Positions 13,778 to 63,565 of a DNA stretch of 64,000 bases are shown in pieces; position 1 is the first letter of the stretch, and every line of letters begins with the position of its first letter. A program made the translations under genes and the position numbers. Under the pieces are notes generated by a model. The model saw only the letters and a program-made list of their open reading frames with translations, searched no databases and was not told the DNA's origin. Origin of the DNA: an uncultured Gammaproteobacteria bacterium (GTDB lineage: Bacteria; Patescibacteriota; Patescibacteriia; UBA11705; JABHMO01); NCBI GenBank assembly GCA_964590105.1, contig CAZPYM010000001.1, positions 431,782 to 495,781 on the forward strand. Reading direction: 5' to 3'.

Positions 13778-13830
13778 ATTTGTTATTTGTAATTTGTTTG
13801 TGATTTGTTGTTTGTAATTTGTAATCTTTC
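13778..13830. repeat. degenerate heptamer tandem repeat, family TTTGTAA (TTTGTTA TTTGTAA TTTGTTT GTGATTT GTTGTTT GTAATTT GTAATC)
   Basis: Read directly; the same word family recurs at 18000-18170, 23400-23455 (reverse orientation) and 59841-59900. Confidence 0.7.
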
Positions 13831-15054
13831 ATTTTCGCCCGAAAGATACTGCTTTAACAAACGATAAACTTCTTCATAATTCATCCGGATCTTGGCGCCC
13901 ATAACCAGCGCAATTAATTCTTTATCATTATTTTTTGCCTGCGTTACCAAATTGTAGCCGGCTTCATCAGTCCAGCCGGTTTTGGAGCCAGTAATATACA
14001 AATCACGATTTAATAACTTTTCACTGGTATTTTGCACCCAATATACCAGCTCATTATTAAGCGGGCTAACCTTGTACCACCTGGTTGTGGTGGCTTTTAA
14101 TATTTCTAGATTATTAAACGCCTGCCTGGCAATCATCGCCATTTCCTCGGCCGTGGAAACATTGTGCTCATCCAGACCGGTCGGCTCGACAAAATAAGTA
14201 TTTGATAAACCCAGGTCAAGCGCTTTTTGATTCATCGATGCAATAAATTTATCCCGAGGCAAACCCGTCACGCGAGTCAGAGCTTCGGCGGCATTATTTT
14301 TTGACCCAACAAGCATGGCATAAAACAAATCTTTTACCAAAACCCGGTCGCCTTCCTTCACCCACAGCGTCGCGCCACCGACATAATCAGACTTTTGCAT
14401 GACAATTTCTTTGTCCCAGCCGGGATTATTCTCAAGGAAAACCAGAGCGGTCATTAATTTTGTCAAACTGGCGATTGAACGGACTTCATGCGAATTTTTT
14501 GTAAATAAAACATTGCCGGAAGATTTATCCATGACAATAGCGGATTCAGCCGTCAGCGACTCTGGATCATCTTCCAAAACCGCTATCTTGGCATAGGGGA
14601 AAATTGTTTTTGCGCGAGCAGTTTTATTTTCAAAATCAATTGTTGTCGGAAGCGCCCGCCATTTCCCTTGATGATTGTCATAAAAATATATTGACTTAGC
14701 CTCGACGTTTTCACTTTCAAAAGCCAGAGACAACAAAACCGGCTTAGCCAAAAAACCGGCTTTATTTGTTTTTATGTCATAAGAATAAAATCCGCTGACT
14801 GCCCTTTTCTTGTCCAGCAGAGAATCAACATTATCAGTATTGGCAATGCTTACTATTAAACTGTCTTTGTATTGACCGGAAAAAACAGGGATCCAAAGTT
14901 GTTTGTCAGCGCTTTTGACTGTAAATCCCCTTGCTAATGTTTGTTCATTAAAACTAACAACCACAAAATCAACAACCTTGGCATCAGCCGCCTGATAAAT
15001 CGCAAAAGTGAATACGATTATTGATATTAAAATTATCCACCTTTTTATATCCAT
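13783..15054 (-). CDS. D-alanyl-D-alanine carboxypeptidase (PBP5/DacB-like serine peptidase S11) with an N-terminal extra domain; C-terminal tail encoded by the heptamer repeat
   Basis: SxxK (SIASLTKLMT), SxN (VGSKNNAAE), N-terminal signal/TM; the last 12 codons overlap the TTTGTAA repeat, so the true stop is uncertain. Confidence 0.75.
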   Translation of the reverse strand: MDIKRWIILISIIVFTFAIYQAADAKVVDFVVVSFNEQTLARGFTVKSADKQLWIPVFSGQYKDSLIVSIANTDNVDSLLDKKRAVSGFYSYDIKTNKAGFLAKPVLLSLAFESENVEAKSIYFYDNHQGKWRALPTTIDFENKTARAKTIFPYAKIAVLEDDPESLTAESAIVMDKSSGNVLFTKNSHEVRSIASLTKLMTALVFLENNPGWDKEIVMQKSDYVGGATLWVKEGDRVLVKDLFYAMLVGSKNNAAEALTRVTGLPRDKFIASMNQKALDLGLSNTYFVEPTGLDEHNVSTAEEMAMIARQAFNNLEILKATTTRWYKVSPLNNELVYWVQNTSEKLLNRDLYITGSKTGWTDEAGYNLVTQAKNNDKELIALVMGAKIRMNYEEVYRLLKQYLSGENERLQITNNKSQTNYK

Positions 15055-15195
15055 ATTTTTCTCAAAACGCGTATCGCATAACGCATTGCGCGTAACGTAA
15101 AACGACTAACTCATCATTATAAACACAAATTTCAAACGCTTTATTAACAACGTTTGAAATTGCTCTGTGCCTTAAAATTCCTGCTTTATTTTAGT

Positions 15196-15669
15196 TTACA
15201 TTTTGATAATTCCGGCCGGCGTCACTTTGTAACAGCCTCCCAGATTAAACTCATTAACACCCTTTTCCAAATTAAAAAGAATCTCATAATCCGTCGGTTC
15301 CAGCCGGGTAAAACTATAATTACACCCTTTATCGGCACAGGCACCCGCATTGGCGCAACTTACGTCAAGAACTTTCGGATCATTTGTTTTTACCAAACCA
15401 GGCATTACTTTCACCAGCACTGAATTTTCTTTTTTGGAACACAGGCTGACAAAAGTCAGATCGCAATACGCCTGATCATAACCGCCAGTTTCATTTTTTA
15501 CCACTTCGAGCGCACTCCGGAGCGTCTGCATGTCGCTGATCCTTTTTGAATCTCTGATTTGTCGTTGCTTTGAATTTAACGAAATCACAAGCAAAGTCAA
15601 AATCAAACCTATGATTCCGACTACAATTAAAATTTCAACTAATGTAAAGCCTTTTAGTCTAGATTTCAT
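15196..15669 (-). CDS. type IV pilin-like protein (prepilin; start corrected to MKSRLKGFTLVE...)
   Basis: Class III signal KG/FTLVEILIVVGIIGL, prepilin peptidase site G-F, N-terminal hydrophobic helix; ATG at 15669. Confidence 0.75.
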   Translation of the reverse strand: MKSRLKGFTLVEILIVVGIIGLILTLLVISLNSKQRQIRDSKRISDMQTLRSALEVVKNETGGYDQAYCDLTFVSLCSKKENSVLVKVMPGLVKTNDPKVLDVSCANAGACADKGCNYSFTRLEPTDYEILFNLEKGVNEFNLGGCYKVTPAGIIKM

Positions 15670-15694
15670 ATAACTCCCATATTGAATTTTCCTA

Positions 15695-16165
15695 TTACTT
15701 CTTAACAATTCCCGTGTTAGACATACTATAACAACCGGCCTCTTTAAACATTCCGGCTCCAGTCTCCAGATAGAACTCAACAGCATAAGTACTCGCCGAT
15801 AGCATTCGCACTGCATATTCACAGCCAGCGACACAGTTACCCGCAACTATACAACTTCCGGCTGTTCCAATCGGGTCTTTAAGATTCTTAATTGTTGGCA
15901 AAAACCCTTCCAAAGCTCCACCAGTACACTGATATAACATTTTTCCCGCAAAACAAGTATTCTCTGGCTTGTACGAGCCACTTTCATTATTAACCAACTC
16001 AAACGCTGTTTTCAGCGCGTCCATATCGCTTAGCCGCTTGGTATCGCGTCCTTTTTCTCTGACATTGCCAAGCGAAACAACAGCCAGTGAAGATAAAAGC
16101 CCAATGATTGCAATCACAACCAAAAGCTCAATCAAAGTAAAACCTTTTTGCTTTTTCATAAACAT
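15695..16165 (-). CDS. type IV pilin-like protein (paralog 2)
   Basis: MKKQKGFTLIELLVVIAIIGLLSSLAVVSLGN...; Cys-rich C-terminal domain. Confidence 0.75.
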   Translation of the reverse strand: MFMKKQKGFTLIELLVVIAIIGLLSSLAVVSLGNVREKGRDTKRLSDMDALKTAFELVNNESGSYKPENTCFAGKMLYQCTGGALEGFLPTIKNLKDPIGTAGSCIVAGNCVAGCEYAVRMLSASTYAVEFYLETGAGMFKEAGCYSMSNTGIVKK

Positions 16166-16200
16166 TTAACAATTAATTTTTATTTTATCATTTCAATTTA

Positions 16201-16662
16201 TTATAGTTTTACGATTCCCTTTTCCGTCAAAGCATAACATCCCTTGTCTTTGAACTGCCCGGCGCCGTTCTCAAGATAGAAAATAATTCTATAGCTACTT
16301 TCCGTTAACGCTATCAGATTGTAATCACAGACACTGGTGCATCCGGTGGCGCAAACTGCAGTTCCCGCAGGATCAATTAAATTCTTAATTGTTGGCAAAC
16401 TCGCTTCCAAGTAACCGTTAACGCAGGAGTGTAGCGCTCCGGACACGCATCCAAGGCCGGTCTTGTATCCGCCATGATCATTATTCACCAGCTCCATGGC
16501 TGTTTTTACCGCGTCCATATCGCTCAAACGTTTTGTATCGCGGCCTTTTTCGCGAATATTTCCAAGAGAAACAACAGCGAGTGATGATAATAGACCAATA
16601 ATGGCAATCACCACCAATAACTCAATTAACGTAAAACCTTTTTTCCTCATAATTTTTTTCAA
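16201..16662 (-). CDS. type IV pilin-like protein (paralog 3; N-terminal about 55 aa nearly identical to paralog 2)
   Basis: MRKKGFTLIELLVVIAIIGLLSSLAVVSLGNIREKGRDTKRLSDMDAVKTA... Confidence 0.75.
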   Translation of the reverse strand: MKKIMRKKGFTLIELLVVIAIIGLLSSLAVVSLGNIREKGRDTKRLSDMDAVKTAMELVNNDHGGYKTGLGCVSGALHSCVNGYLEASLPTIKNLIDPAGTAVCATGCTSVCDYNLIALTESSYRIIFYLENGAGQFKDKGCYALTEKGIVKL

Positions 16663-16720
16663 TTAATTAAATTTTATATATATGACTTTGTTATTTGTGA
16701 CTTTCGCTGTTTTAATTATA

Positions 16721-17926
16721 TCACATATTATTAGAAATTTCATACATAGGCAGGACAATCGCGGTAATCATCACCGCCACTGCCACGCCGAGAACGATCA
16801 TAATGACCGGTTCGAGCAAAGACATCAGGTTGTCAATGGTATTATTTACTTCCCTAGTGTAAAATTCGCTTATTTTTTCCAATACCGCCTCCATCATTCC
16901 AGTTTCTTCGCCGGTTTCAAGCATTTGCGAGAGCATTTGCGGCACTAATTTGCTTTTGCTAAATTCTTCGCCCAGCGCGCCGCCGCCCTCAACGTTTTGT
17001 TTTGTCTTCAAAAGTAATTCCCGATATATTGAATTTCCAACCATATCAGAAGCAATGCCCAGACCCTCAACAATATCCACTCCACCTATGAGCAAAGTTC
17101 GGAAACTGCGCGCAAACCTGATTACGGCAATATAATTTAATAGTGGGCCAAAAATAGGTAAATTTAATTTTAAATTATCAACCGCCCTTTTTCCTTTTTT
17201 ACTCTTGGAAAAAAGGCGCAGACCACCAACAACCGCAATTATTACAAGTAACAAAAGCCACCAATCATGGATCAAAAATTCGCTGATCCCCTGAATAATC
17301 CTCGTGGCCAGCGGCAATTCCGCACCGGTCTGCGTCAGCATATCAGTTAATTTCGGAACGACAAAAATCATCATCAAAGCGCCGATCGCCACCAAACTGC
17401 AGACAATAAAAATCGGGTAAATCATGGCTCCTTTGATTTTGCTTTTCAAATCATAATCTTTTTCCATCTGATCAGCCAGATAAAGAAGTACTTCCTGCAG
17501 ACGGCCGGATACTTCGCCGGACTTGATAATATTGACAAAAAAACTATCAAAAATTTTCGGGTAGTGCGACAAGGCTTCTGAAAATCTTACTCCACCCTCA
17601 ACTTCCTGCACTACGCTGGCAGTTGTTTTTTTGAGCTTTTTATTTTTAGTTTGCGAAGCCAAATCTTTCAATGCTTCAACCACCGGCACTTCAGCAGAAA
17701 TCAATATTGAAAGCTGCCTGGAAAAAATAACCAAATCCTTTGGTTTTACGCGCCCGACCAGTAAATCAAAATTAAAAATATTACTTTTTTTTTCTTCCAA
17801 AAACAAAACTGAATATCCGCGCTCTTCCAAAAGATCCACGGCAATGCTTTCTGTTTCCGCCTCTACTGCGCCTTCTGACAGCGCCTGTTCATTGTATTTT
17901 TTCGCTCTATAGTTATATAAGGGCAT
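16721..17926 (-). CDS. pilC: type IV pilus assembly platform protein PilC (GspF family); start corrected to MPLYNYRAKKY
   Basis: Two GspF repeats (FSRQLSILISAEVP..., ...FARSFRTLLIGGV), three TM segments, adjacent to pilB. Confidence 0.85.
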   Translation of the reverse strand: MPLYNYRAKKYNEQALSEGAVEAETESIAVDLLEERGYSVLFLEEKKSNIFNFDLLVGRVKPKDLVIFSRQLSILISAEVPVVEALKDLASQTKNKKLKKTTASVVQEVEGGVRFSEALSHYPKIFDSFFVNIIKSGEVSGRLQEVLLYLADQMEKDYDLKSKIKGAMIYPIFIVCSLVAIGALMMIFVVPKLTDMLTQTGAELPLATRIIQGISEFLIHDWWLLLLVIIAVVGGLRLFSKSKKGKRAVDNLKLNLPIFGPLLNYIAVIRFARSFRTLLIGGVDIVEGLGIASDMVGNSIYRELLLKTKQNVEGGGALGEEFSKSKLVPQMLSQMLETGEETGMMEAVLEKISEFYTREVNNTIDNLMSLLEPVIMIVLGVAVAVMITAIVLPMYEISNNM

Positions 17927-17999
17927 AGTAGAGTAGTGAGTGGTGAGTGGTAAGTGGTGCTTGCCCTGTACCCGAACGAAGAGAGTGGTATAGGAAGTG

Positions 18000-18170
18000 G
18001 TGAATAAAACGAAAATCACAAATTCCGAACTACAAATCACAAACAATAAAGTATAAATAACAAATTACAATCAACTTTACTATCAATCAAGTTAGATTCT
18101 GACGCCTTTGGATTCATTTGAAATTTGTAATTTGTTTGTAATTTGGAATCTGTACTTTGTGATTTACAGT
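18000..18170. repeat. intergenic heptamer-word repeats in inverted orientation (ACAAATCACAAACAA...AACAAATTACAATCAA at 18020-18070, then TTTGTAATTTGTTTGTAATTTGG at 18121-18150), a potential long imperfect hairpin between pilB and pilC
   Basis: Read directly; 18121-18145 is the reverse complement of the ACAAATTACAAA words upstream. Confidence 0.65.
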
Positions 18171-23399: not shown

Positions 23400-23455
23400 A
23401 AAATTACAAACCACAAACAACAAATCACAGGCAAATCACGAATTACAAACAAAAT
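23400..23455. repeat. heptamer-word repeat (AAATTACAAACCACAAACAACAAATCACAGGCAAATCACGAATTACAAACAAA) upstream of pilM
   Basis: Read directly; reverse-orientation copy of the TTTGTAA family. Confidence 0.65.
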
Positions 23456-23663
23456 GAAGATGTGAAATAAAATAAACGTTAGGAGACCTAAGAAGATAGA
23501 AAAGAAAAGACGGCTACCCCAATTTCTAATTTCAAATTTCTAGTTTCGCTTCTTCCTCCCTTACTCTTCTCACCCATTTCCATTCTTATTCGTTCATACT
23601 GATATTCCACAAAATTTATTATATCATTTTTCAACTAAAAAAGGAATTATTTATACACACCAA

Positions 23664-25253
23664 TTATTTTTTTATTTTTGGCAAGGCTTTCGCCAGATCA
23701 ACAAAGCCCAGCGGCGGGTTGGAAATAACCCTAGAGTCATAAATCACTCTTTCCGCTGACTCATTCAATCCTTGTTCAGAGTAATTGCGCTGAAACTTGA
23801 ATTCATGCGCTACCATTAGGCCCTGAACTTCAAGCGGCTTATCAATTTGCCCTTCTCCTTTCGTGCCGGTATTTATTGTCCCCTCCGCAAAATAACTGCC
23901 AACCACTTTTGTTACATTCGGATCAATGTAAATATTGCCACCGCCGCCATCGTCATTCTTTATAACAATCCAACCGATTGAAGCCAACTTTTTCAAGCTG
24001 TTTACAGACGTTAACTGGTAATATTGATTACCCTTAACATGCAGGTCGCCACGAACAATAATCGTACCGGCGCCGCTATAATTTGAATAACCATTATAAA
24101 TAACTTTCGCGGGTACGCTCAAATCATGATTTGAATAATACACATTTCCTTTTAAATAATTGTCATAAAATGTAGCCGCAGTAATCTTTTTTACTGGTCC
24201 GTATTGCTCTGCCAACATACCTTTTATGTCTAAAAGCCCCAATTCTGATTGATAAGCGCTTTCTTGTTTTGGCAGATTAAGGAGACCGACCTCGTCACTC
24301 ACCCAGTCGGCTGACCCGCACTGACCGGTCGCTTCACATTCTGAAGAAAAGTGAACTATACTGCCATTGCTTTGAACCATGTAAGTTGCGTTATAACTGT
24401 CCTCTGGCGTCACACCCTGGTACATTGAACCAACTCCCTTTTGCCCATAGACATCTCCGCCTATTGTTTCCAAGTACGGAGGATTAATTATTGCTTGTGA
24501 CTCTAATGGATGAAATCCCAACCAACCAAAGCCAGTCCCATTTCCATTACCATTCCAACCCCAACCAATTAGCATGTTATTTGAATAATCAATACCAACG
24601 CCGTATTTGTAACACTTGTCGCACTGATAACAGATATTCCCTACGCAATTACTACAGGCTTCGCAAATCTCCTGGCTACCAGAAAAATCTTCAGAAGCAA
24701 AACAAATTCCGCAACGCTCTCTGCTTTCATCTTTTAATAAAGCGCAGTTGCGGCAGGCGTATTTTTTGCCCGACAAATTAACTTCCGGCCCCAAAAGCTT
24801 CAGCCAGCCGTCGGCGCCAATTGAAGTCCAGGCCGCCCAGCCGTCAATAAGGCCATGGTCGGAAAGTCTGACTTGCGGAGCAAAGCCGTCAGGCGTGACT
24901 GCCAGATTAGGCAAACTCGGACCGGTACAGCTCTCGCCAAAACACAGCCAGCCGACATTTTCCGACCAGGCATAGCCGTTTAATTTACCCGTATTGGAAT
25001 CATAATCAACGCCATAATCAGTTTGAATACATTTATTGAGAATTTCTTCGTTATAGCAATTGAGCGACACCCAGCCGATATTTTCCGACCAGGCAAAACC
25101 GCTGACTTTGTGATTTTTGCTGGCGTTGACGGCGAAGTCTCCGGAGAGCAAAAAGGCAATAAAACAAAAAATCAATAAAGCAAAAAAGCAATAAAGCGAT
25201 TTATCTCTTAAATGAAATCGCGCCAAAAAATTTTTAACCGGTTGTTTTGCCAT
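23664..25253 (-). CDS. large Cys-rich secreted / membrane-anchored protein with GYAWSENxGW repeats (start corrected to MAKQPVKNF)
   Basis: N-terminal signal anchor (LYCFFALLIFCFIAFLL); repeated SGFAWSENIGWVSL / NGYAWSENVGWLCF; more than 30 Cys; pilus-locus neighbour. Confidence 0.6.
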   Translation of the reverse strand: MAKQPVKNFLARFHLRDKSLYCFFALLIFCFIAFLLSGDFAVNASKNHKVSGFAWSENIGWVSLNCYNEEILNKCIQTDYGVDYDSNTGKLNGYAWSENVGWLCFGESCTGPSLPNLAVTPDGFAPQVRLSDHGLIDGWAAWTSIGADGWLKLLGPEVNLSGKKYACRNCALLKDESRERCGICFASEDFSGSQEICEACSNCVGNICYQCDKCYKYGVGIDYSNNMLIGWGWNGNGNGTGFGWLGFHPLESQAIINPPYLETIGGDVYGQKGVGSMYQGVTPEDSYNATYMVQSNGSIVHFSSECEATGQCGSADWVSDEVGLLNLPKQESAYQSELGLLDIKGMLAEQYGPVKKITAATFYDNYLKGNVYYSNHDLSVPAKVIYNGYSNYSGAGTIIVRGDLHVKGNQYYQLTSVNSLKKLASIGWIVIKNDDGGGGNIYIDPNVTKVVGSYFAEGTINTGTKGEGQIDKPLEVQGLMVAHEFKFQRNYSEQGLNESAERVIYDSRVISNPPLGFVDLAKALPKIKK

Positions 25254-25333: not shown

Positions 25334-25591
25334 CTACATCCAAACCCGAGGATCATTGTTCGGATCATCGTCGTCAGCTTCCTGCCAAACATCCAACCAT
25401 TTGCCGACAACAAACGAAGCGAGCCCTATGCCCAGCCCGACGACCGCCGCACAAAACGTTTGTACATCGCTCAAATTGATAATTTGAAACGTCGGCCCCA
25501 GCAATATGGCGCCGGCCACAATCAAACAGCCAAGCGTCATTCCCAAACGCGGCAAAAAATATTTCAGAGAATTCTTCATGGCCACCTCCAC
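25334..25591 (-). CDS. small hypothetical membrane protein (two TM)
   Basis: Two hydrophobic helices, acidic C-terminus (EADDDDPNNDP). Confidence 0.4.
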   Translation of the reverse strand: MEVAMKNSLKYFLPRLGMTLGCLIVAGAILLGPTFQIINLSDVQTFCAAVVGLGIGLASFVVGKWLDVWQEADDDDPNNDPRVWM

Positions 25592-25708
25592 GGTTTGAAT
25601 TTTGAATGAACCTAATAAACCGATTGTTAATGTTATAAAAATATAAGAGATTTGTCAAGACTGAAAATCCGAGATTGGCGCCGGATCTTTGAATAAAACT
25701 TCGCACCC

Positions 25709-25745
25709 TCAACCCTAGTTTCTAGTTTCCAGTTTCCAATTTCTA
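25709..25745. repeat. heptamer tandem repeat, family AGTTTCY (CCCTAGTTTCTAGTTTCCAGTTTCCAATTTCTATTTTCCAATTTC)
   Basis: Read directly; a nearly identical word string is at 56504-56545. Confidence 0.7.
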
Positions 25746-26147
25746 TTTTCCAATTTCATCAAGTGCTTTATTTACCAGCGCATCCGCTTCTGTGTTCTGC
25801 TCTCTATAAAGATGTTTATATACAATTTTTTTGAAATGATGCTGTAAATTGTAAATCTTCAAAAACTGCTGAGCCAATTCTTGGTTTTTCACTTTGTATT
25901 CTCCTTTCAACTGTTTCACAACAAGTTCGCTGTCCAAATTAAATTCCAATTCCGTACCACCCAACTCTTTTGCTTTTTCCAGCGCAAAAACCACGGCCTG
26001 ATACTCGGCCTGATTGTTGGTAGTCTCGCCAATGTATTTGCCTTCACCGTGCAAAACTTTACCTTTTTCATTTTTAATTACATACCCGATTGCAGCCGGG
26101 CCGGGATTGCCCCTCGCTCCCCCGTCGCAGTTTATTGTTAGTTTCAT
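25743..26147 (-). CDS. rnhA: ribonuclease HI
   Basis: MKLTINCDGGARGNPGPAAIGYVI...NNQAEYQAV...EL...NTEADALV, the RNase H DEDD carboxylates. Confidence 0.85.
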   Translation of the reverse strand: MKLTINCDGGARGNPGPAAIGYVIKNEKGKVLHGEGKYIGETTNNQAEYQAVVFALEKAKELGGTELEFNLDSELVVKQLKGEYKVKNQELAQQFLKIYNLQHHFKKIVYKHLYREQNTEADALVNKALDEIGK

Positions 26148-26163
26148 ATTGTGCTTATTACTT

Positions 26164-27900
26164 TTAGCTTTTACATTTTACCTTCAAATCCACAACTTTA
26201 AACTCAAATTCCCGATTCCCATTCCATTCATTAATACCAAGTTCGCACACTGCCTCTATTGTATCACCGACACGAAGCTTTTCCAACCACTCTTTTGCTT
26301 TTCCAAACCAAAGCATTTTGTAAAGCTGGGGACTTTCTTGTTTTACGCTAAGCCGCAAATGAGTTTGATCCTGGCCAATGGCATCCATGGCGGCAATTTT
26401 CAAATCCCTGATTACAAAAAGCGGTTTTGAATTGCCCTCGCCAAACGGAGCAAATTTTTCTAGCTGTCCCAAAAAATCAAAGTCAATTTGATTGATTTGG
26501 ATTTCAGCGTCAACATCGAGTACCGGCCGTAAATCAATTTCGCCAAGCTCTTTTTCCACGTGCTTGGTAAAATCATTTTCAAATTGCTCGCGAACCTCAA
26601 TCTCAGTCAATGTAAATCCGCAGGCACCGGCATGACCGCCATATCGAGCGAAAAAATTATTAACTGAATGCAACCCCTGAATAATATTAAATTCCGCGAT
26701 TGAACGGCCGGATCCTGTAACTTTTCCGTTGGAAAGCGTCATGGCGATTGCCGGACGATAAAACTCGTCACTAAGCCGCCCAGCAATCAGGCCAACAATT
26801 CCGGGTAACCAGGTCTCATCATATACAAAAATAATTTTTTTTGTTTCAATTGATTCAATCTGCAATTTAGCTTCTTCCAACGCCTTAATAATTACCTTCT
26901 GGCGCGCCTGATTATTCTCCTGCAATTCCAAAGCTATTCGCTCAGCTTCCAACGCATTTTCGGAAACTAATAATTCATAAGCAACGCTCGCGTGGTTCAT
27001 CCGACCAGCGGCATTTAGTCTCGGCGCGATTTGGAATCCGATTGTAAAAGAATTAATCCCCTTGGAACCAATTGATTCGAGCAACTTTTGCAATCCCACC
27101 CAGCGCGTTTGTTCCAACACTTTCAATCCCCACTTAACCAAAACTCTATTCTCGCCAATAATCGGTGCCACATCAGCCACCGTTCCTATCGCCACAATGT
27201 CCAGCAGCCATTTTTGAAATCCTTCAACCCCTCCATAAACGTGGAACGTGGAACGTGGAACGCGGCTGACATCAGTTAACAGTCCGCAAATTAACTTATA
27301 AGCAACTCCCGCGCCGACCAGCTCTTTGAACGGATAGCCGCTATTATCTACTTTGGGATCTAAAATTGCGTAAGCATCCGGCAATTCCAAAAGTGGCTCA
27401 TGGTGATCCGTAACGATGACATCAATCCCCATTGTGTTTAGGGTGGCGATTTCTTGCACATTAGTTATACCGCAATCAACTGTAATCAAAAGTTTTGTTC
27501 CCTGAACACGAAAGTTGTTCAGATTCTCCATGTTTAATCCATAACCATCGTCTTCCCGATGCGGGATGAAGACTTCCACTTCTGCGCCAAGCAATTTAAG
27601 GGTCCGGGACAAAATAGCTGCGCTAGTAACTCCATCAGCATCATAATCGCCGTGAATTAAAATTCTTTCCTTCTTTTCAATCGCCGACCAAATACGCTGG
27701 ACCGTCTTTTCCATGTCAGTAAACAAGAATGGATCATAGAGCTTTTCATATTCAGGATTAAAAAAATAATCAATTGCCGATTGACTTATCAAACCTCTGT
27801 TATATAATAGCTTTGCAATAATCGGATGATAGCCCGCAAGCTTAGTTTTAAACTCATCCGGTGGAGTATCTTTGATTTTCCAACTTTTTGACATATACAC
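26164..27900 (-). CDS. recJ: single-stranded-DNA-specific exonuclease RecJ
   Basis: DHH motifs (ILIHGDYDADGVTSAAIL, DHHE), DHHA1 region (GGHAGACGF), 578 aa. Confidence 0.88.
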   Translation of the reverse strand: MYMSKSWKIKDTPPDEFKTKLAGYHPIIAKLLYNRGLISQSAIDYFFNPEYEKLYDPFLFTDMEKTVQRIWSAIEKKERILIHGDYDADGVTSAAILSRTLKLLGAEVEVFIPHREDDGYGLNMENLNNFRVQGTKLLITVDCGITNVQEIATLNTMGIDVIVTDHHEPLLELPDAYAILDPKVDNSGYPFKELVGAGVAYKLICGLLTDVSRVPRSTFHVYGGVEGFQKWLLDIVAIGTVADVAPIIGENRVLVKWGLKVLEQTRWVGLQKLLESIGSKGINSFTIGFQIAPRLNAAGRMNHASVAYELLVSENALEAERIALELQENNQARQKVIIKALEEAKLQIESIETKKIIFVYDETWLPGIVGLIAGRLSDEFYRPAIAMTLSNGKVTGSGRSIAEFNIIQGLHSVNNFFARYGGHAGACGFTLTEIEVREQFENDFTKHVEKELGEIDLRPVLDVDAEIQINQIDFDFLGQLEKFAPFGEGNSKPLFVIRDLKIAAMDAIGQDQTHLRLSVKQESPQLYKMLWFGKAKEWLEKLRVGDTIEAVCELGINEWNGNREFEFKVVDLKVKCKS

Positions 27901-28026: not shown

Positions 28027-28060
28027 CCGCCCATGGCAGACGCCGGGCGGCTTTGTTGTT
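28027..28060 (-). terminator. rho-independent terminator of the metallophosphoesterase cassette
   Basis: GCCGCCC...GGGCGGC stem (28027-28051); on the minus strand it is followed by CTTTTTTTTTGCC (A-tract 28013-28024 on plus). Confidence 0.6.
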
Positions 28061-28800
28061 CAACTTCCTTCATACAGTCGCTTGGTAAGAATACCGTCGA
28101 GATTGAGCTTTTTCATTTCAGCAACCGTTTCATCAATCCTGTACGAAACGCGCCGATACTCTGCCAAGAGCTTGTGGCGGAAAAAATCCACCACCATGTA
28201 ACAGGCGCGCGGGTCATCGTCGCGCGGCTGGCCGACGCTACCCACATTGATGGCGAACTTCGACGGGAAACGAACCTCCAGCGGCGAATGTGACATACCA
28301 AGCTTTACTAATCCATGCTTGATGTGGTAGATTGCCGGCTGATGAGTATGGCCAAAGAACAAAACCGGCGTCGCAACAGCCGTCAACTGCTGGCGGGCGA
28401 TATGTTCGTTGCGAATATACTCCCAGCCGTCAGGATCTGTCCAGTTCGCGTGAACCATTGAAATTCCCAGGTTGGGAATATCCATGGCCATTTCCAGTCC
28501 CCGCAAAAAGGCCAGATCATCAGCCTTGAGCATTTTGGCATTCTGCGCCATTGCCAACAACGCCGGGTAATTATGATTGGCCATGTTGCAGCCATGCCCC
28601 ACGCCAAAATCATGATTTCCCATGAGCGTCAGATTGCAATGCTCCCTGGCCCAAGCAATGCATTCCCGCGGAAACGGACCATAACCGGTCACATCGCCGA
28701 GGCAGTAGATCACATCAACGCCCATTGTGGCAATGTCTTTCGCAACGGCTCGCAGAGCCGGCCAATTGCTGTGAATGTCCGACAATATCGCCGCTCTCAT
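28060..28800 (-). CDS. calcineurin-like metallophosphoesterase (GC-rich cassette)
   Basis: Motifs DIHSN (D-x-H), LGDVTGYGP (GDxxDRG-like), LMGNHD (GNHD/E), FFGHTHQ; GC about 55%; SD AGGAGGA 5 nt upstream of ATG. Confidence 0.75.
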   Translation of the reverse strand: MRAAILSDIHSNWPALRAVAKDIATMGVDVIYCLGDVTGYGPFPRECIAWAREHCNLTLMGNHDFGVGHGCNMANHNYPALLAMAQNAKMLKADDLAFLRGLEMAMDIPNLGISMVHANWTDPDGWEYIRNEHIARQQLTAVATPVLFFGHTHQPAIYHIKHGLVKLGMSHSPLEVRFPSKFAINVGSVGQPRDDDPRACYMVVDFFRHKLLAEYRRVSYRIDETVAEMKKLNLDGILTKRLYEGS

Positions 28801-34952: not shown

Positions 34953-34962
34953 AATTTATAAA

Positions 34963-34989
34963 TTATTATTATTATTATTATTATTATTA
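34963..34989. repeat. (ATT)9 microsatellite
   Basis: Read directly. Confidence 0.9.
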
Positions 34990-39172: not shown

Positions 39173-39241
39173 ATTTACAGATTACAGATCAATACGGAAG
39201 TACGGATATTTAATCAGTATATCAGTACAATCAGTAATCAT

Positions 39242-39799: not shown

Positions 39800-39851
39800 A
39801 TATTTTTTTTATTTCTTAATTACCCAATTCCCCAATTACTTAATCTCAAAT

Positions 39852-43218: not shown

Positions 43219-43350
43219 AAATTCAAAGCACAAAACTCAAAGCTCAAAGAACAAAAAAAACTTAAAGTGTAAAATTCAAAATATAAAAACAACCTTGGAA
43301 TTTTAAATTTTTAATTTTAGATTTCCTTTGGACTTTAAATTTTGTACTTT
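43205..43350. repeat. intergenic imperfect palindrome built from A-rich heptamer words (CAAAGCACAAAACTCAAAGCTCAAAGAAC...TTAAAGTGTAAAATTCAAA // TTTGGACTTTAAATTTTGTACTTTGGGCTTT)
   Basis: Read directly: the second arm is approximately the reverse complement of the first. Confidence 0.6.
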
Positions 43351-43355
43351 GGGCT

Positions 43356-44363: not shown

Positions 44364-44369
44364 AATCAA

Positions 44370-44520
44370 GTTAAAAGTGTAAAGTTCAAAGTTAAAGGTA
44401 AATTCCAGCGCAAGTTTTCCTGCTACAACAATCACTGCCTGTTTTTACTTTCAACTTCTTATTTATACTCTTCCTTTTAATTTTTACCTTTTAACTTTTA
44501 ATTCTCCAATTTTCCAATCA
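44370..44520. repeat. intergenic imperfect palindrome of heptamer/octamer words (GTTAAAAGTGTAAAGTTCAAAGTTAAAGGTAAATT ... TTTTAATTTTTACCTTTTAACTTTTAATTCTCC)
   Basis: Read directly. Confidence 0.6.
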
Positions 44521-46747: not shown

Positions 46748-47131
46748 ATGAAAGAGCTCGGCCGCCATGTGTTGATTGAATTTTATGAATGCGCCACCGA
46801 GGCGCTGAACAACCTAGAATTCATTGAAGAACAAATGCTCGAAGCCGCCAGATTGACGGGCGCGACCATTGTCGGCAAAATCTTCCACCGATTCAGTCCA
46901 CACGGTGTTTCAGGCGCAGTGGTGATTGCTGAGTCGCACCTCACGATTCACACCTGGCCGGAATACGACTACGCGGCAGTTGATCTTTTCACCTGCGGAC
47001 CAACCGTTGATCCGTGGAAAGCTTTCACTCACCTGCAAACCGCAATCGGTTCCAAACGCACTTCTCAGACTGAGATCCGACGCGGGCTTTTTCCACAAAA
47101 CGTCAGCCACAAGCCCGGCGCTGACGGATGA
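46748..47131 (+). CDS. speH: S-adenosylmethionine decarboxylase proenzyme (small SpeH type), GC-rich cassette
   Basis: [11 protein letters not shown]..., self-processing site region ...[11 protein letters not shown]; perfect SD AAGGAGGTG; GC about 52%. Confidence 0.8.
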
Positions 47132-48575: not shown

Positions 48576-48595
48576 AGCCTTTCCCTAAATGTAAA

Positions 48596-48660
48596 TTCAC
48601 CAATTCGCTAATTCACTAATTCGCCAATTCACACTTCAATCACACCTCACAACTTTAACT
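48596..48660. repeat. octamer-word tandem repeat (NNNAATTC: GTAAATTC ACCAATTC GCTAATTC ACTAATTC GCCAATTC ACACTTC...)
   Basis: Read directly; similar words at 39811-39850 and 44480-44520. Confidence 0.6.
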
Positions 48661-52839: not shown

Positions 52840-52910
52840 GTATTGATTTAATCTGTTCATTTCACTAACCGTCTCAGGCAGCTATGCCACAAATAGCAAA
52901 GGGAGAAAAC

Positions 52911-54035
52911 ATGGGAAAGAAAGCGTGGACATTCGCAATTCTGCTGGGGCTTGTAGCTTCTATTTCCGTACCATGGATTGTTATCAAGATCGTTGCCAAG
53001 ACGCAGAGCCCCGAGACGCACGAGCCGACGATGATGGAGAACGGCGACAACCCGGTAGAGTCCGGCCAGGACGAGCCCACAATGATGGAAAACAGCGACA
53101 ACCCGGTAGAGTCAAGCCAGGACGAACCCACGACTCTTCGCCTGCCGATGTACGTACAAACGACGGTCCAGGCGCGCCTCCTCACGATGGAGGAACTGGC
53201 CTTGGACTTTCCGGAAAACTATGACATTGAACAACGGGGTGACTATCACAGAATCGCCAAGAACTGCACGGCGACCGAACTGGCCACCAAGGCTGATTGC
53301 CTGCCGCTCACCGGCTGGTTCAAGAAGGCTTACTTGAAGTCTGACGGTTCCATTACCGTGGACTTCCAATGCAATCCAAACGACTCGCGAATGTGTACCG
53401 TGCTTTTGCGCGGACCTGTAAGCGATGGAACTGTCTACGGCTGTGGTCTTCCGGATGCGGCCCTCGAAGATATCCTCGTCATGGACTTACTTGGCGCCGG
53501 ATATAGCCTTCTGAAAGACGGGGCAGTCGAATACATCCGCTACGGCGGCAAAGACCTAACCGGCGGCCACCATTCATTCTTCATCAAGGACGGCCTGATC
53601 TATGGTAGGTACGGAACCGATGAAGAGCTCGTGCGCCGCGCTGACGGCTCGTTTGTCCGCGAAAGCGGCTCGTTCGCCGAGCAGATCAGGAAAGAGGCTC
53701 AGGCTAAGAAAGTGCTGGACTTTCTCGGCTCCGGATACTCCATGCGCTACGACGCCGTGTTCGAGTTTATCCAATACGACAAGCAGGACGTGGTGCCTCG
53801 CGGCTACCATTACTACATCCTCCGCGATGATCGGATCTACGGCATTCTCGGCGCGACCGAAGAGGAAGTTCTCGCCAACCGGCCGAAGATTCCGCCAGAA
53901 AAAAGGGATATGATCGGTCAATCATGTCTTTGTCCGGATCTCGGACTTGGGACATGGGTGGAACTCGGGTACAAAGAGCTGGTCTGCGTTCATCTGCCGG
54001 AAAGAGGTCCCATCTGCCATTCCAACTGCTTCTAG
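52911..54035 (+). CDS. secreted hypothetical repeat protein (GC-rich cassette; alternative upstream start 52884)
   Basis: Signal peptide MGKKAWTFAILLGLVASISVPWIV; tandem EPTMMENxDNPVESxQD repeats; duplicated about 55-aa module (LLGAGYSLLKDGAVEYIRYGGKD... / FLGSGYSMRYDAVFEFIQYDKQD...); SD GGGAGA before 52911; GC about 57%. Confidence 0.65.
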   Translation: MGKKAWTFAILLGLVASISVPWIVIKIVAKTQSPETHEPTMMENGDNPVESGQDEPTMMENSDNPVESSQDEPTTLRLPMYVQTTVQARLLTMEELALDFPENYDIEQRGDYHRIAKNCTATELATKADCLPLTGWFKKAYLKSDGSITVDFQCNPNDSRMCTVLLRGPVSDGTVYGCGLPDAALEDILVMDLLGAGYSLLKDGAVEYIRYGGKDLTGGHHSFFIKDGLIYGRYGTDEELVRRADGSFVRESGSFAEQIRKEAQAKKVLDFLGSGYSMRYDAVFEFIQYDKQDVVPRGYHYYILRDDRIYGILGATEEEVLANRPKIPPEKRDMIGQSCLCPDLGLGTWVELGYKELVCVHLPERGPICHSNCF

Positions 54036-56457: not shown

Positions 56458-56503
56458 TTTTAGAAACCGGGAACAGGAAATTGGAAATCAGGGTTTAGCG
56501 CTG

Positions 56504-56545
56504 TTACTTTCTACCCTAGTTTCCAGTTTCAAGTTTCCAATTTCG
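56504..56545. repeat. heptamer tandem repeat, family AGTTTCY (CCCTAGTTTCCAGTTTCAAGTTTCCAATTTCGTTTTA) between grpE and dnaK
   Basis: Near-copy of 25709-25745. Confidence 0.7.
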
Positions 56546-56547
56546 TT

Positions 56548-59798: not shown

Positions 59799-59840
59799 AT
59801 TTTATTTTATTATTCTTCATCTGACACGCGCCATGAAATA

Positions 59841-59900
59841 TTTATTGTTATTTGTTATTTGTTTGTAATTTGTTATTTGTCATTTGTAATTTTCATGTTT
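59841..59900. repeat. heptamer tandem repeat, family TTTGTAA (TTGTTATTTGTTATTTGTTTGTAATTTGTTATTTGTCATTTGTAATTTT)
   Basis: Read directly. Confidence 0.7.
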
Positions 59901-60170
59901 TATCTTCCTTATAATTATCATTCCTGCAATATACAAAAAAATCGGTTTGATGAATAAAATTAAAAGTCCAAGTCCGTCGCTGCCAACCTTGACTAAGCCG
60001 GAACGATCGGCACTATAAATCGGATTGGCCATTATTCGGTGAACAATCAAGTTAAGCCAAACAAAAACGACCAAGCTTAAAACGATCATTAAACTCAATT
60101 CAGTTTTTTGAGTAAAATAATATTTTAGCAAAGTGGATAAGTAAAGTTTGTATTTTTGAATTCTCGTCAT
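59880..60170 (-). CDS. small hypothetical membrane protein (96 aa)
   Basis: Two or three hydrophobic segments; the start overlaps the repeat. Confidence 0.35.
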   Translation of the reverse strand: MTRIQKYKLYLSTLLKYYFTQKTELSLMIVLSLVVFVWLNLIVHRIMANPIYSADRSGLVKVGSDGLGLLILFIKPIFLYIAGMIIIRKIKHENYK

Positions 60171-60196
60171 AATAATAATTTAGTACTAATTCTTCC

Positions 60197-60907: not shown

Positions 60908-60962
60908 AGCGTCTTGCCTTAAATTTTAAAATTTGATTTTCATTATTCCTCTCGCGCCCGCC

Positions 60963-62996
60963 TTAAAACCCCGCCAGCGTAAAAACATCGGCAGTGGTGG
61001 CGATAATTTCAACTTTTCCATCGCCGTCTGTGTCTGAAGTTACAACTTTGACACCGGCCCGCAAATTTTTGTCAAAAGCGAAAAAATCAGGACCATCCGC
61101 CTTACCGTTTTTATCAAAAGACTTAACGTGCGGTCCGCCGCCATTGCCCGGCCCCGTGATAATTTCATCCACGCCGTCGCCGTCAATATCGCCGGCCGCC
61201 ACATTTACCCCGCCACGAAATTTCGGATCATAGGCGAAAAATCCCGGATTAATACAACGTCCGTCAGGCGCGAAAACGCGCACATGAGGGCCCCCGCCAA
61301 AACCAGCGCCGGTTACTATTTCATACCAACCGTCGCCATCCAAATCAGCAATGGTAACATTCACGCCGCCGCGAAATTCCGGGCCATAGGCAAAAAATCC
61401 CGGATTAATCAGTTTGCCACTGCTGTTAAAAATTCTGACTTGCGGTCCGCCACCTTTTTCCGTGCCGGTAATTATTTCCATTGTGCCGTTATTATCCAGA
61501 TCACCGACAGTAATATTAATACCACTATCGTACTTTTCTGTATATGGAAAAAAGCTGGTTATTAATTCGCCTTTTGAATTATAAATTTTTACTTGATTAA
61601 TGTCCGCCACTAGAATTTCTTTTTGCCCATCATTATTTATGTCTTTCTCAATTATCTGACTTCCGCCTTTGTAATTTTCATTGTAGGCAAAAAATCCGGT
61701 TCTAGCCACATGGCCGAACTCGTTGTAAACTTTGGCAAACGAGCCATTGACATAAGTGGCATTATAAATATTTTCAATCGGCCGAAGCAGGACAAGGCCG
61801 TCATTGGCCGCCAAATCCACATAATCGACAAAAGAGCCGTCATTGGTCAGCGCGTCCTGCGTACCATGCAATTTTTCATATTCGCCGCCAAGATCAAGTC
61901 CATATTCTTTGTTCGTGGAATTAACCAGAATCAAGCCGTTTTTAAAATCCCGGCGCCACAAGCCCTCGGCATATGTTTTGGAATTATTAAGAACATTTGT
62001 TGCTTGCCCGGCCGGCTCGCCAAGATATGCTTCATACTCGTCATACCACCATATTTCCCGATGGCTCTGATCGCCATTATCAAAGCTGTAATAACCGTTA
62101 TCAAGAAGCGCGCTCGCCAGACCAAAACGCATTTTTTTGTAATCCTGACTATTTCCTGAGTTATTTACGTTGGCATTAAGAATGCTGAGCGATGGATGCG
62201 CGCCATTACTATTTACAAATGAATATTTTTTCAGAGTTTCAGCCCAACCCTTGGCTGGAAAATGTTCATACAACACTCCATTTAAATATTTGTAATAATA
62301 GTCGCCGCCATTACCCATTATCAAAGCGTCTTCACCCAAGAGCATGCGGGTATTGCCAAGCAAGACTTCCATGCCTTCGCGCCACTTATTATTAATTTCA
62401 CCGATTGGTTCTGCCACGCCGTTCTGATCAAGGTCAATATTATAAGATTCCATAAAGGAAAGATCATCCCAGACATTATCATAAAATACTCCATCCCAAT
62501 AACCGCTGGCCATTAATTCATTTTTCACAAACAACGGCAAAACATCCTGCCAGCGCTTACCGTTTTTAATGGGCGCGTTTGAAGTCACATTAAGCATCGG
62601 ATTTGGCGCCCACCAAGCGACTTTCTTCCCGCCTGAATCTTTTAGCCACCAGCTCTCATCAATCTGCTGATATAATTTTTGTCGGAGCGTCCCTGCGAGC
62701 GTACCCGAGTCTCCCCGGATTTCTTCAGACGCAATGTAAGCCAAAAGTTTTACATCAGGATTTAATTTTTTAATTAATTTCAAACTTTCCGGCGAATAGG
62801 TCTGCACTTCCATGGCAATGATAAGCACATCCCATTTGGCTAATTCTTTTGCTTCTTCCGTTGTAATATCCCAGCGGAAAAATAGATTCGCCAGCTTTGG
62901 ATATTGATTGTGATTCAAATCAGCTCCCGTGGTGATAAACAAGGGAGTTATAATTAAAAATAAAATAATTGTTGTGTATAAAAACTTTTTACGCAT
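60963..62996 (-). CDS. secreted protein with an N-terminal glycoside-hydrolase-like (TIM-barrel-like) domain and C-terminal FG-GAP/VCBS repeats
   Basis: Signal peptide; five or more repeats of D(L/I)D(N/G)(N/D)G..EI(I/V)TG.G.GGGP(Q/H)V(R/K).F. Confidence 0.6.
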   Translation of the reverse strand: MRKKFLYTTIILFLIITPLFITTGADLNHNQYPKLANLFFRWDITTEEAKELAKWDVLIIAMEVQTYSPESLKLIKKLNPDVKLLAYIASEEIRGDSGTLAGTLRQKLYQQIDESWWLKDSGGKKVAWWAPNPMLNVTSNAPIKNGKRWQDVLPLFVKNELMASGYWDGVFYDNVWDDLSFMESYNIDLDQNGVAEPIGEINNKWREGMEVLLGNTRMLLGEDALIMGNGGDYYYKYLNGVLYEHFPAKGWAETLKKYSFVNSNGAHPSLSILNANVNNSGNSQDYKKMRFGLASALLDNGYYSFDNGDQSHREIWWYDEYEAYLGEPAGQATNVLNNSKTYAEGLWRRDFKNGLILVNSTNKEYGLDLGGEYEKLHGTQDALTNDGSFVDYVDLAANDGLVLLRPIENIYNATYVNGSFAKVYNEFGHVARTGFFAYNENYKGGSQIIEKDINNDGQKEILVADINQVKIYNSKGELITSFFPYTEKYDSGINITVGDLDNNGTMEIITGTEKGGGPQVRIFNSSGKLINPGFFAYGPEFRGGVNVTIADLDGDGWYEIVTGAGFGGGPHVRVFAPDGRCINPGFFAYDPKFRGGVNVAAGDIDGDGVDEIITGPGNGGGPHVKSFDKNGKADGPDFFAFDKNLRAGVKVVTSDTDGDGKVEIIATTADVFTLAGF

Positions 62997-63000
62997 TCAA

Positions 63001-63060
63001 CGTTTATTAAGCTCAAAGTTACAAGCTCAAAGTTCAAAGTAAATTTAAAATTTCAAATAT
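63001..63060. repeat. A-rich heptamer words (GCTCAAAGTTACAAGCTCAAAGTTCAAAGTAAATTTAAAA), left arm of inverted repeats flanking the four-helix-bundle gene
   Basis: The reverse complement of 63505-63565 gives CCAAGTCCAAAGCTCAAAGTTCAAAAATCAAAGTAAACTTCAAG..., sharing the GCTCAAAGTTCAAA and CAAAGTAAA words. Confidence 0.6.
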
Positions 63061-63070
63061 AAAACTTCAA

Positions 63071-63493
63071 CTAATCACAAGGAGAATCCTCCCTACTGAC
63101 GTCTTCGTGCTTGTCAACTGCTGTTTTAATTCTTGTTCCTTCCCTATCATGCACTATTGAAGCGAAAATTTTCGTTAATTCAAATGCTTCTTGAGCTGAA
63201 GCCATTCTCTCTGTTTCCAAAATGCTATCTTCAGGAACGCATAGCAATCGCAACCACAATCTGCTTTCCTTAGCTTCTTTCCGACAAAGCTTTAACCTAT
63301 GTAATTCGTCTTTCTTGCTTATTGCTTCGCAAGCTTCTATATAATTGGCGGCTACTGAACCAGATGATCTAATCACCTGTTTGCCATCTTCAATGTTTGA
63401 GGTAGTTTTAGGTATCTGGCAAACATGCGCTCTAACCCTTTTGGCAAAATTAAAAGTTCTTTCTTCTAGATCATACTTTTTGTCTTGAAGCAT
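63071..63493 (-). CDS. four-helix-bundle protein of the family usually encoded inside 23S rRNA intervening sequences
   Basis: DLEERTFNFAKRV...SSGSVAANYIEA...SKKDELHRLKLCRKEAKESRLWLRL resembles the recalled family consensus (DLxxR.F.FA..V......P..........QL.RSATSIGANIAEG...S.KDF...L.IA.GE..ET..WL). Confidence 0.65.
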   Translation of the reverse strand: MLQDKKYDLEERTFNFAKRVRAHVCQIPKTTSNIEDGKQVIRSSGSVAANYIEACEAISKKDELHRLKLCRKEAKESRLWLRLLCVPEDSILETERMASAQEAFELTKIFASIVHDREGTRIKTAVDKHEDVSREDSPCD

Positions 63494-63499
63494 ATGCCA

Positions 63500-63565
63500 G
63501 TATTTAAATTTTTAACTTTAGACTTGAAGTTTACTTTGATTTTTGAACTTTGAGCTTTGGACTTG
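63500..63565. repeat. T-rich heptamer words (TTTAAATTTTTAACTTTAGACTTGAAGTTTACTTTGATTTTTGAACTTTGAGCTTTGGACTTGG), right arm of the inverted repeats
   Basis: Approximately the reverse complement of 63001-63060. Confidence 0.6.

Follow-up and report, generated by a model that had tools for sequence, protein, structure and literature searches.

What are the degenerate tandem repeats of 7 and 8 nt that occupy many intergenic spacers in a 64-kb stretch of contig CAZPYM010000001.1 (positions 431,782-495,781; this whole stretch is hereafter the window)? A first-pass annotation described several families of such words, some arranged as long imperfect palindromes. We computed the repeats and their families, the folding potential of the spacers, the lineage-specific gain and loss of arrays, and the association of such arrays with genes of the PF05635 family across phyla. 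The explanation that we prefer, with a probability of about one half, is that these heptamer arrays, which resemble the short tandemly repeated repetitive (STRR) sequences of cyanobacteria, are, in the spacers of this candidate phyla radiation (CPR) bacterium, the arms of palindromic elements of the intervening sequence (IVS) type, with or without a PF05635 gene. This explanation is based on the enrichment of period 7, the dispersed blocks of 19-35 nt, the folding z-scores and the presence of a PF05635 gene within the longest inverted repeat of the window, along with the loci of a related metagenome-assembled genome (MAG; L008), the inverted repeats that flank PF05635 genes in metagenomes and on plasmids, and the precedent from Coxiella.

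Tandem words are present at every position where they had been reported, and Tandem Repeats Finder (TRF) returned 87 rows for the window, with period 7 predominant. Gapless lag-match scans under-detect the arrays because these contain 4-nt indels; enrichment was therefore assessed by running TRF on intergenic DNA plus 40 nt, counting arrays of at least 3 copies and comparing the counts with 100 dinucleotide shuffles. There are 17 intergenic period-7 arrays against 0.22 ± 0.46 expected (shuffle maximum 2) and three period-8 arrays against 0.11 expected; other periods are near the shuffle background. Thus, the first-pass claim that the repeats are not random, which was to be dropped if they showed no enrichment over shuffled sequence, holds. 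Furthermore, autocorrelation peaks at lag 7 and lag 14 are confined to intergenic DNA. The arrays are degenerate (69-86% matches in TRF) and belong with heptanucleotide long simple sequence repeats (SSRs), i.e., head-to-tail repeats of a 1-11 nt unit above chance. As had been noted previously, they are not CRISPR arrays, given that the units are 7-8 nt long and contiguous, with no unique spacers. A TRF "array" with 8- and 16-nt units at 25147-25197 was excluded from the intergenic repeats, being coding DNA for a hydrophobic N-terminal segment (LYCFFALLIFCFIAFLL).

Pairwise alignment of the arrays delineates three dispersed families with the cores CAAAG (family A), ACAAAT (family B) and GGAAAC (family C), all of which have a (C/G)AAA core at 7-nt phase. 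Near-identical stretches of 19-23 nt are repeated across different spacers: ATTTGTAATTTGTTTGTAATTTG, a 23-mer from the TTTGTAA family, has 3 occurrences if up to one mismatch is allowed (0.01 expected), a 19-mer of the CAAAG family has 6 (0.05 expected) and a 22-mer of the AGTTTCC family (CTAGTTTCC) has 4 (0 expected). The copies at 25.7 and 56.5 kb have ~35 nt in common, including flanking non-repeat bases (ACCCTAG); the former is homologous to the 5' arm of the latter (alignment z 14.9). The word families proposed in the first pass are thus borne out for multi-unit stretches. Consensus 7-mers alone show only marginal similarity (20 pairs vs 11.6, P = 0.064) because AT-rich 7-mers easily look alike.

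Hairpins in the spacers and the PF05635 gene

At least five spacers between same-strand genes contain two inverted arrays, with stems of ~20-60 pairs that occupy the spacer wholly or for the most part (Table 1). The inverted repeats that rank first in the whole window are all pairs of arrays, namely 63009-63063/63503-63557, 18013-18077/18129-18165 and 44371-44401/44471-44501. When the minus-strand RNA of the 42 spacers of at least 50 nt was folded, z was below -2 in 17 and below -3 in 13. The suggestion that several spacers carry both orientations and can form long AT-rich hairpins is supported by the inverted repeats and by the folding z at 43.2, 18 and 44.4 kb; the array hairpins at 56458-56547 and 39173-39241 come in addition to those suggested. 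Most stems start a few nucleotides past the upstream stop codon and end 0-10 nt before the next ATG, and in the mreB-GT4 hairpin the mreB stop codon is paired, at the base of the stem, with bases abutting the GT4 start codon. The exceptions are the pilB-pilC stem, which ends ~85 nt before the pilC ATG, and the stem between the 175-aa open reading frame (ORF) and mreB, which begins ~21 nt past the stop codon. The hairpins had been assigned to operon boundaries; instead, they are located within strings of same-strand genes, and several of them separate functionally linked neighbors (grpE-dnaK, pilB-pilC, the neighbors of mreB).

The longest inverted repeat in the window encloses a gene. The arrays at 63001-63060 and 63500-63565 belong to one element, located between a glycosyltransferase gene and the GHL15 gene, in which inverted arrays surround a PF05635 gene. 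Its product matches Pfam PF05635 (2.9e-10, 40.8 bits, cut-off 33.8), TIGR02436 (59.4 bits, cut-off 24) and PDB 2rld (1.7e-8). The arms are 55 nt long, 71% complementary and 439 nt apart, and the stem is present in the minimum-free-energy fold. They score 32-37 against the ORF-less hairpin at 43.2 kb and only 26 against each other.

The same arrangement recurs in the related MAG L008. Three additional PF05635 genes, including a frameshifted one, are enclosed there by inverted heptamer arrays, with a separate word for each gene (AAATCCG, ACATAGC and GAGTAAT). Two of these genes occupy the mreB-GT4 spacer and the spacer between frr and the aminoacyl-tRNA synthetase (aaRS) gene, where the window has ORF-less hairpins. 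The arrays themselves are gained and lost in a lineage-specific manner: the spacer between the 175-aa ORF and mreB is 153 nt long here and 3-111 nt in relatives, and the GT4-holB spacer contains ~110 nt of arrays in L010, a Falkowbacteria MAG, compared to 31 nt in total in the window.

A scan of metagenomic contigs yielded 80 loci with PF05635 relatives (52-66% identity), 75 of them with both flanks available. A flanking inverted repeat (score of at least 14) is present at 69% of these 75 loci, compared to 0.65% of 153 control windows of the same size from the same contigs (P = 9e-23). Period-7 arrays are 16-fold denser in the 160-nt flanks than elsewhere (3.82 vs 0.24 per kb) and are found on at least one side in 60 of the 80 loci; the dominant unit, AAATCCG / AAATTCG / AAATCCT (AAATYCG), is kept across loci of 33-65% GC, and the 5' arm ends at a median of 6 nt before the ATG.

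A tblastn search with the window protein against 72,556 plasmids identified 21 records: Cyanobacteria account for 18, Candidatus Chlorohelix (Chloroflexota) for two and Bernardetia (Bacteroidota) for one. Each of the 15 plasmid homologs that were inspected has heptamer arrays on both sides, in inverted orientation in 13-14 cases; these arrays often are perfect and adjoin the start and stop codons, and they comprise ~4.4-5.7 copies per arm, as estimated by TRF with the bias of a 3-copy cut-off. Examples are TAATTCG (x4.7) and AATTACG (x4.7) in Nostoc C052, TTCAAAA (x5.3) and AATTTTG (x5.6) in Aulosira, and AATCCCC in Planktothrix, a word obtained by rotating the classical STRR-type word CCCCAAT. 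Within a 50-kb stretch of a Nostoc plasmid, period-7 arrays occur at both ends of only 2 of 51 coding sequences; this stretch also contains ORF-less inverted pairs in addition to the PF05635 gene inside one pair. Judging by these sequences, inverted heptamer arrays almost always surround PF05635 genes, in at least four phyla and in the Coxiella rRNA IVS.

On the plasmids, PF05635 genes are located inside operons (cas2-cas1, DUF1156-HEPN gene, drmD-MmeI, helicase-methylase) and beside XisH/XisI. The junctions in defense operons recur among cyanobacterial and Chlorohelix plasmids (L111, L113, L114, L117, L118, L121, L123, L126): cas2/cas1 in two genera, DUF1156/Swt1-HEPN in Gloeocapsa and Chlorohelix, DISARM drmD/MmeI, and helicase/methylase. 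On the chromosomes of relatives, the mreB-GT4 spacer is an insertion hot spot (L008 9014-9658, L015 1931-2389, L018 8809-10007, L011 8134-8788, L009 6189-6359), with a PF05635 pseudogene in L008, two unrelated ORFs in L018, another ORF in L011, a TAAAAGT x8.9 array in L009 and, in L015, an ORF that by eye resembles a GIY-YIG nuclease. In L007 and L018, the large spacers that follow frr contain unrelated ORFs and no arrays. In L010, an AATTACG/GATTACG array (x5.4; 700-737) is in frame within the GT4 coding sequence, and the inverse word, CGTAATT x6, follows holB (2544-2585); the same word is also present at the flanks of PF05635 genes of Nostoc C052 and Dolichospermum.

Candidate explanations for the arrays

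If the arrays are arms of IVS-type elements, the window would hold one full copy (62997-63566), with the PF05635 gene in the loop between inverted arrays, ORF-less hairpin copies at 43.2, 44.4, 18.0, 56.5 and 39.2 kb, and single-arm copies at 13.8, 23.4, 25.7 and 59.85 kb. The elements are probably transcribed inside polycistronic mRNAs because they are located between same-strand genes, without a separate promoter. In such mRNAs, the inverted arrays would form stems of ~20-60 pairs that bring together the upstream stop codon and the downstream start codon and, by analogy with rRNA IVSs, are likely to be RNase III substrates. Array length probably shifts by 7-nt replication slippage, with 7-nt loops expected to escape MutS and MutL; both genes are present in the window, which rules out loss of mismatch repair as the cause of the arrays. 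Recombination between similar arrays is the probable route by which copies spread from one spacer to another.

Several observations weigh against this explanation. The arms show no significant excess of G.U pairs in the sense strand among their mismatches (121 vs 100, P = 0.18), which gives no support to selection on the arms at the RNA level, and the sense RNA folds better than the antisense RNA in only 5 of 8 window hairpins. A six-frame search of the ORF-less hairpins with hidden Markov models detected no PF05635 coding remnant, which gives no support to their descent from gene-carrying copies; arrays outnumber the PF05635 gene by ~20 to 1. Array positions are not conserved among relatives, as neutral turnover also predicts. 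Finally, there is no array length polymorphism across 12 contigs of the same strain, a comparison that is little informative given that the contigs are clonal (0-1 single-nucleotide polymorphism, SNP).

One rival explanation is that the arrays are a functionless mutational by-product, i.e., SSRs that arise by 7-nt slippage and are tolerated in spacers only, with inverted pairs generated by template switching and PF05635 genes hitch-hiking. Heptanucleotide SSRs are the commonest class of long SSRs in many prokaryotes and have been attributed to slippage of the polymerase (Mrazek 2007, as cited in PMC4679880 and PMC4692102), and the degeneracy of the arrays, their lineage-specific positions, the similarity of the consensus units barely above that expected from composition and the missing G.U excess are all compatible with such an origin. 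Nevertheless, we consider it unlikely because slippage alone leaves unexplained the 19-35-nt blocks common to distant spacers, the 69% vs 0.65% contrast in inverted pairing around a single gene family, the maintenance of AAATYCG across loci of widely different GC content and the arrays that abut the ATG and stop codons of PF05635 genes in four phyla.

Another possibility is that the arrays are binding sites, in DNA or RNA, for the PF05635 homopentamer, with about one heptamer per subunit, and that the protein acts in trans on arrays throughout the genome and regulates its own gene. The related protein bAvd binds nucleic acid. The near-constant location of PF05635 genes within arrays and the clustering of arm copy numbers at ~4.4-5.7, a TRF estimate biased by the 3-copy cut-off, fit this scheme, as do the five chains of PDB 2rld, the homopentameric toroid in which S23p crystallizes (quoted in PMC4990558), the role of bAvd as an accessory protein of diversity-generating retroelements (PMC10053308) and the heptamer-binding protein, not identified there, that has been postulated in a study of Nostoc (bioRxiv 10.1101/2022.06.06.494920). 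However, the L008 paralogs are embedded in arrays of different words, and therefore either one protein per word or binding that depends on shape rather than on sequence is required; on balance, we doubt that pentamer binding accounts for the arrays. A broader proposal, that heptamer arrays across bacteria (including STRR, Patescibacteria and Coxiella) are the cis partner of PF05635 (S23p/Avd-like) pentamers and that together they constitute a widespread IVS-like selfish or regulatory element, which inserts within operons, leaves behind ORF-less hairpins and has ~five heptamers recognized per arm, is one that we put forward tentatively.

Regulation of host genes appears still less probable. Under this scenario, intercistronic stems would couple translation or protect mRNA ends, and A/U-rich leaders would replace Shine-Dalgarno sites, which are scarce in the window (see below). 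Indeed, arrays abut the starts of pilC, alaS, dnaK, GT4, mreB, RNase H and the aaRS gene, the mreB-GT4, grpE-dnaK and frr-aaRS stems begin just past the stop codon and reach to within 0-10 nt of the ATG, folding of several hairpins is better in the sense strand, and TAACTGA repeats in Beggiatoaceae spacers that lack ribosome-binding sites have been proposed to be translational regulators (PMC4679880). Yet close relatives that share the gene order have repeat-free spacers of 3-60 nt at these sites, and the elements are therefore dispensable; moreover, neither words nor positions are conserved, and neither covariation nor a G.U signal is seen. That the hairpins are rho-independent terminators, at the operon boundaries suggested in the first pass, is highly improbable: their stability and the position of some arrays behind stop codons would fit, but the stems are AT-rich, ~20-60 pairs long and lack a U-tail, in contrast to the short GC-rich stem plus U-tract of canonical terminators, which are sited elsewhere in the window (~28.9, 47.15 and 3.45 kb), the hairpins separate functionally linked genes such as grpE-dnaK and pilB-pilC, and no array hairpin was listed in a terminator scan of the window, the terminator and promoter consensus scan being uninformative on arrays.

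Single arrays, gene boundaries and the host genome

The features discussed here are collected in Table 1. Two genes, those for Peptidase_S11 and for the 96-aa ORF, terminate in ...NYK* within family-B arrays. The first-pass annotation correctly derived the C-terminal codons of the former, dacB-like gene from an array, and only their number has to be changed, from 12 to 13. Several gene starts were misplaced by ORF extension into arrays; the real starts are at 17926 (pilC), 43218 (GT4) and ~44364 (mreB). Thus, one practical consequence of the arrays is that ORF callers overextend gene starts and ends into them.

Table 1. Heptamer and octamer arrays, array hairpins and the PF05635 element in the window (coordinates within the 64-kb stretch)
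Feature	Position	Strand	Description
3' arm of the PF05635 element	62997..63070	-	U-rich in mRNA sense; ACTTTGA/GCTTTGA units; ends 14 nt before GHL15 ATG
PF05635 / TIGR02436 "four helix bundle" gene (23S rRNA IVS protein, S23p-like)	63071..63493	-	140 aa, intact
5' arm of the PF05635 element	63494..63566	-	A-rich in mRNA sense; TCAAAGC/TCAAAGT units
mreB-GT4 hairpin	43219..43355	-	ORF-less; family A; ~54 pairs; -40.7 kcal/mol; z -5.4 to -5.9; fills spacer
175-aa ORF-mreB hairpin	44365..44517	-	Family A; loop ~70 nt; z -2.2 to -3.1
pilB-pilC hairpin	18013..18165	-	Family B (ACAAAT/ATTTGT); directly after pilB stop; z -3.2
grpE-dnaK hairpin	56458..56547	-	Family C (GGAAACT / AATTTCC); fills spacer; z -6.0
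frr-aaRS hairpin	39173..39241	-	CTGATTA / TAATCTG; between frr and class-II aaRS gene; z -5.0
Family-B array, solitary	13776..13825	-	13786-13825 encodes last 13 codons (LQITNNKSQTNYK*) and stop of Peptidase_S11 (dacB-like) gene
Family-B array, solitary	59841..59900	-	Overlaps end of 96-aa ORF
Family-B array	23400..23455	-	U-rich in mRNA sense; ~35 nt upstream of pilM
Family-C-like array	23521..23547	-	AGAAATT in mRNA sense
Family-C array, solitary	25709..25757	-	Straddles RNase H stop codon (25743); upstream of promoter-like site
Octamer array	48594..48649	-	GGTGAATT in mRNA sense; self-complementary through AATT core; upstream of cysS; z -4.4
Octamer array	39811..39850	-	GGGTAATT in mRNA sense; upstream of frr
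Composite arrays	11267..11382	-	7-, 8- and 9-nt units; reach alaS ATG
GTAAAAG-type array	26153..26184	-	9 nt upstream of RNase H start
ACCACTC x4 array	17931..17959	-	Ends 5 nt upstream of real pilC start (ATG at 17926)
Family A (CAAAG)	43.2, 44.4, 63.0, 63.5 kb
Family B (ACAAAT)	13.8, 18.0-18.2, 23.4, 59.85 kb
Family C (GGAAAC)	23.5, 25.7, 56.5 kb
TRF arrays, period 7	13776-13825, 18116-18165, 23406-23429, 23521-23547, 25715-25757, 43219-43249, 43299-43324, 44374-44402, 44474-44501, 56518-56544, 59845-59892, 63009-63064, 63533-63564
TRF arrays, period 8	39818-39839, 48594-48632

Other repeats and boundaries in the window deserve mention. A GC-rich, near-perfect 20-bp hairpin at 3369-3434, built from 9- and 15-nt repeats (GTAGGGACA...; spacer z -8.7), is located between a canonical terminator and the mutL start, 10 nt upstream of the latter, and differs in kind from the AT-rich heptamer hairpins. 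In a divergent spacer, an (ATT)9 microsatellite (34962-34989) precedes the ATG of the PTAC (pduL-like) gene by ~10 nt. A small membrane-protein ORF at 25345-25600 on the minus strand (start ~25578), unlike its neighbors, is preceded by a TTGACA-N17-TATAAC-like promoter of its own and by a strong GGAGG Shine-Dalgarno sequence; the longest-ORF call for this protein, 25374-25712, runs too far, into the array. The plus-strand ORF at 52884-54035 (383 aa, no Pfam match) contains a 51-nt tandem repeat (53020-53131, 2.2 copies, score 175) and is part of a local island with raised GC (0.47) and almost no GC skew, which may be foreign DNA.

Across the window, mean GC is ~41% (range 36-48%), the GC skew is negative throughout, and nearly all genes are encoded on the minus strand. 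The Pfam annotation yields a housekeeping set that includes mutL, mutS, alaS, mnmA, Peptidase_S11 (dacB-like), pilins, pilC, pilB, pilM, recJ, RNase H, lepA, murJ, ackA, frr, holB, the GT4 glycosyltransferase, mreB, dus, cysS, dnaJ, dnaK and grpE, and HrcA is in the gene table. An Rfam scan of the window at gathering thresholds matched no family and no rRNA, and no tRNA was found there. A GGAG-type Shine-Dalgarno motif (GGAG/GAGG at -20 to -4) precedes only ~4 of 62 genes (for example, 3539-4951, 28060-28800 and 46748-47131), and the leaders are A/U-rich. Low usage of Shine-Dalgarno sequences is typical also of Cyanobacteria and Bacteroidota, two phyla in which array-bracketed PF05635 genes were found here as well.

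The sequence places the window in a Patescibacteria (CPR) chromosome akin to those of Kuenenbacteria and Falkowbacteria. The nearest relatives of the GT4 protein are encoded in MAGs of Candidatus Kuenenbacteria (75% amino acid identity), Falkowbacteria and other Patescibacteria, with conserved gene order. A cyanobacterial origin, which the STRR-like repeats could suggest, is ruled out: the closest genomes are those of Patescibacteria and HIP1 is not enriched, and the host is therefore a CPR bacterium. Twelve contigs (L001-L006, L105-L110) are 100% identical to the window, one of them with a single SNP, and come from at least three sequencing projects (ENA ERZ272489xx, Logan SRR8437217, JGI 3300028162/3300028191), which indicates a single clonal population that was repeatedly sampled.

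Comparison with known repeat systems

Similarly to repetitive extragenic palindromic (REP) sequences, bacterial interspersed mosaic elements (BIMEs) and miniature inverted-repeat transposable elements (MITEs), the elements described here are dispersed imperfect palindromes in spacers between genes that, in the window, are probably co-transcribed. Unlike in these classes, the arms are internally periodic with a 7-nt unit, and neither a conserved REP sequence nor, among the annotated genes, a RAYT gene or a transposase was observed; empty sites in relatives are too diverged for alignment. The GGGAATC repeats of Xanthomonas and the GGGGAYT repeats of Nostoc (PMC4692102) are also intergenic heptamers, some in inverted pairs, with lengths that differ between related strains; these, however, are G-rich and form quadruplexes, which is impossible for the AT-rich arrays of the window. 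The TAACTGA repeats of marine Beggiatoaceae (PMC4679880) resemble the window arrays in that they immediately precede start codons, in spacers that lack a canonical ribosome-binding site. They have been reported in Beggiatoaceae, Cyanobacteria and Bacteroidetes, the latter two also among the hosts of array-bracketed PF05635 genes, but consist of a single word in 2-6 copies, essentially in direct orientation only, and no link to PF05635 is reported in that paper.

With the STRR sequences of Calothrix, Nostoc and Anabaena the arrays have in common the 7-nt unit, the intergenic location and the presence of several families per genome; copy number is variable in STRR and in heptanucleotide long SSRs. 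In contrast to STRR, which occur in (heterocystous) cyanobacteria, the host here is a member of the Patescibacteria, its words are rich in AT and have a (C/G)AAA core, and none of the TRF consensus units of the window is a classical STRR word. Heptanucleotide repeats have been known from cyanobacteria since 1990 and from many other bacteria since 2007, with no established function or partner. The reduced CPR genome harbors a repeat landscape of the same kind, in which arrays commonly pair into hairpins that bridge adjacent genes. In our literature searches, we came across no publication that treats heptamer repeats in Patescibacteria, and a link between PF05635 and heptamer arrays only in the paper on the Coxiella IVS, without a generalization. 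The association described here suggests PF05635/TIGR02436, a small, widespread family of equally obscure function, as a possible protein partner for heptamer repeats and merges two unknowns into one testable hypothesis that involves binding of the protein to the repeats and RNase III processing of IVS-like elements inside mRNAs.

The closest precedent is the 23S rRNA IVS of Coxiella burnetii, which contains the S23p ORF, a 28-bp terminal stem that is cut by RNase III, and 2-4 heptamers immediately before the ATG, in a number that varies between strains, and which is viewed as a selfish element (PMC4990558). The element at 63 kb resembles the S23p-encoding IVSs of Coxiella and Leptospira in having a PF05635 ORF in the loop of a long stem formed by terminal inverted repeats, heptamers directly upstream of the ATG and a Shine-Dalgarno sequence that is poor or absent. 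It differs from them in its location among protein-coding genes rather than in helix 25 or 45 of 23S rRNA, in arms that consist entirely of heptamer arrays, and in being accompanied by numerous ORF-less and single-arm copies. What is new here is that STRR/SSR-like heptamers are organized, in a CPR genome and outside rRNA, into palindromic elements that resemble IVSs.

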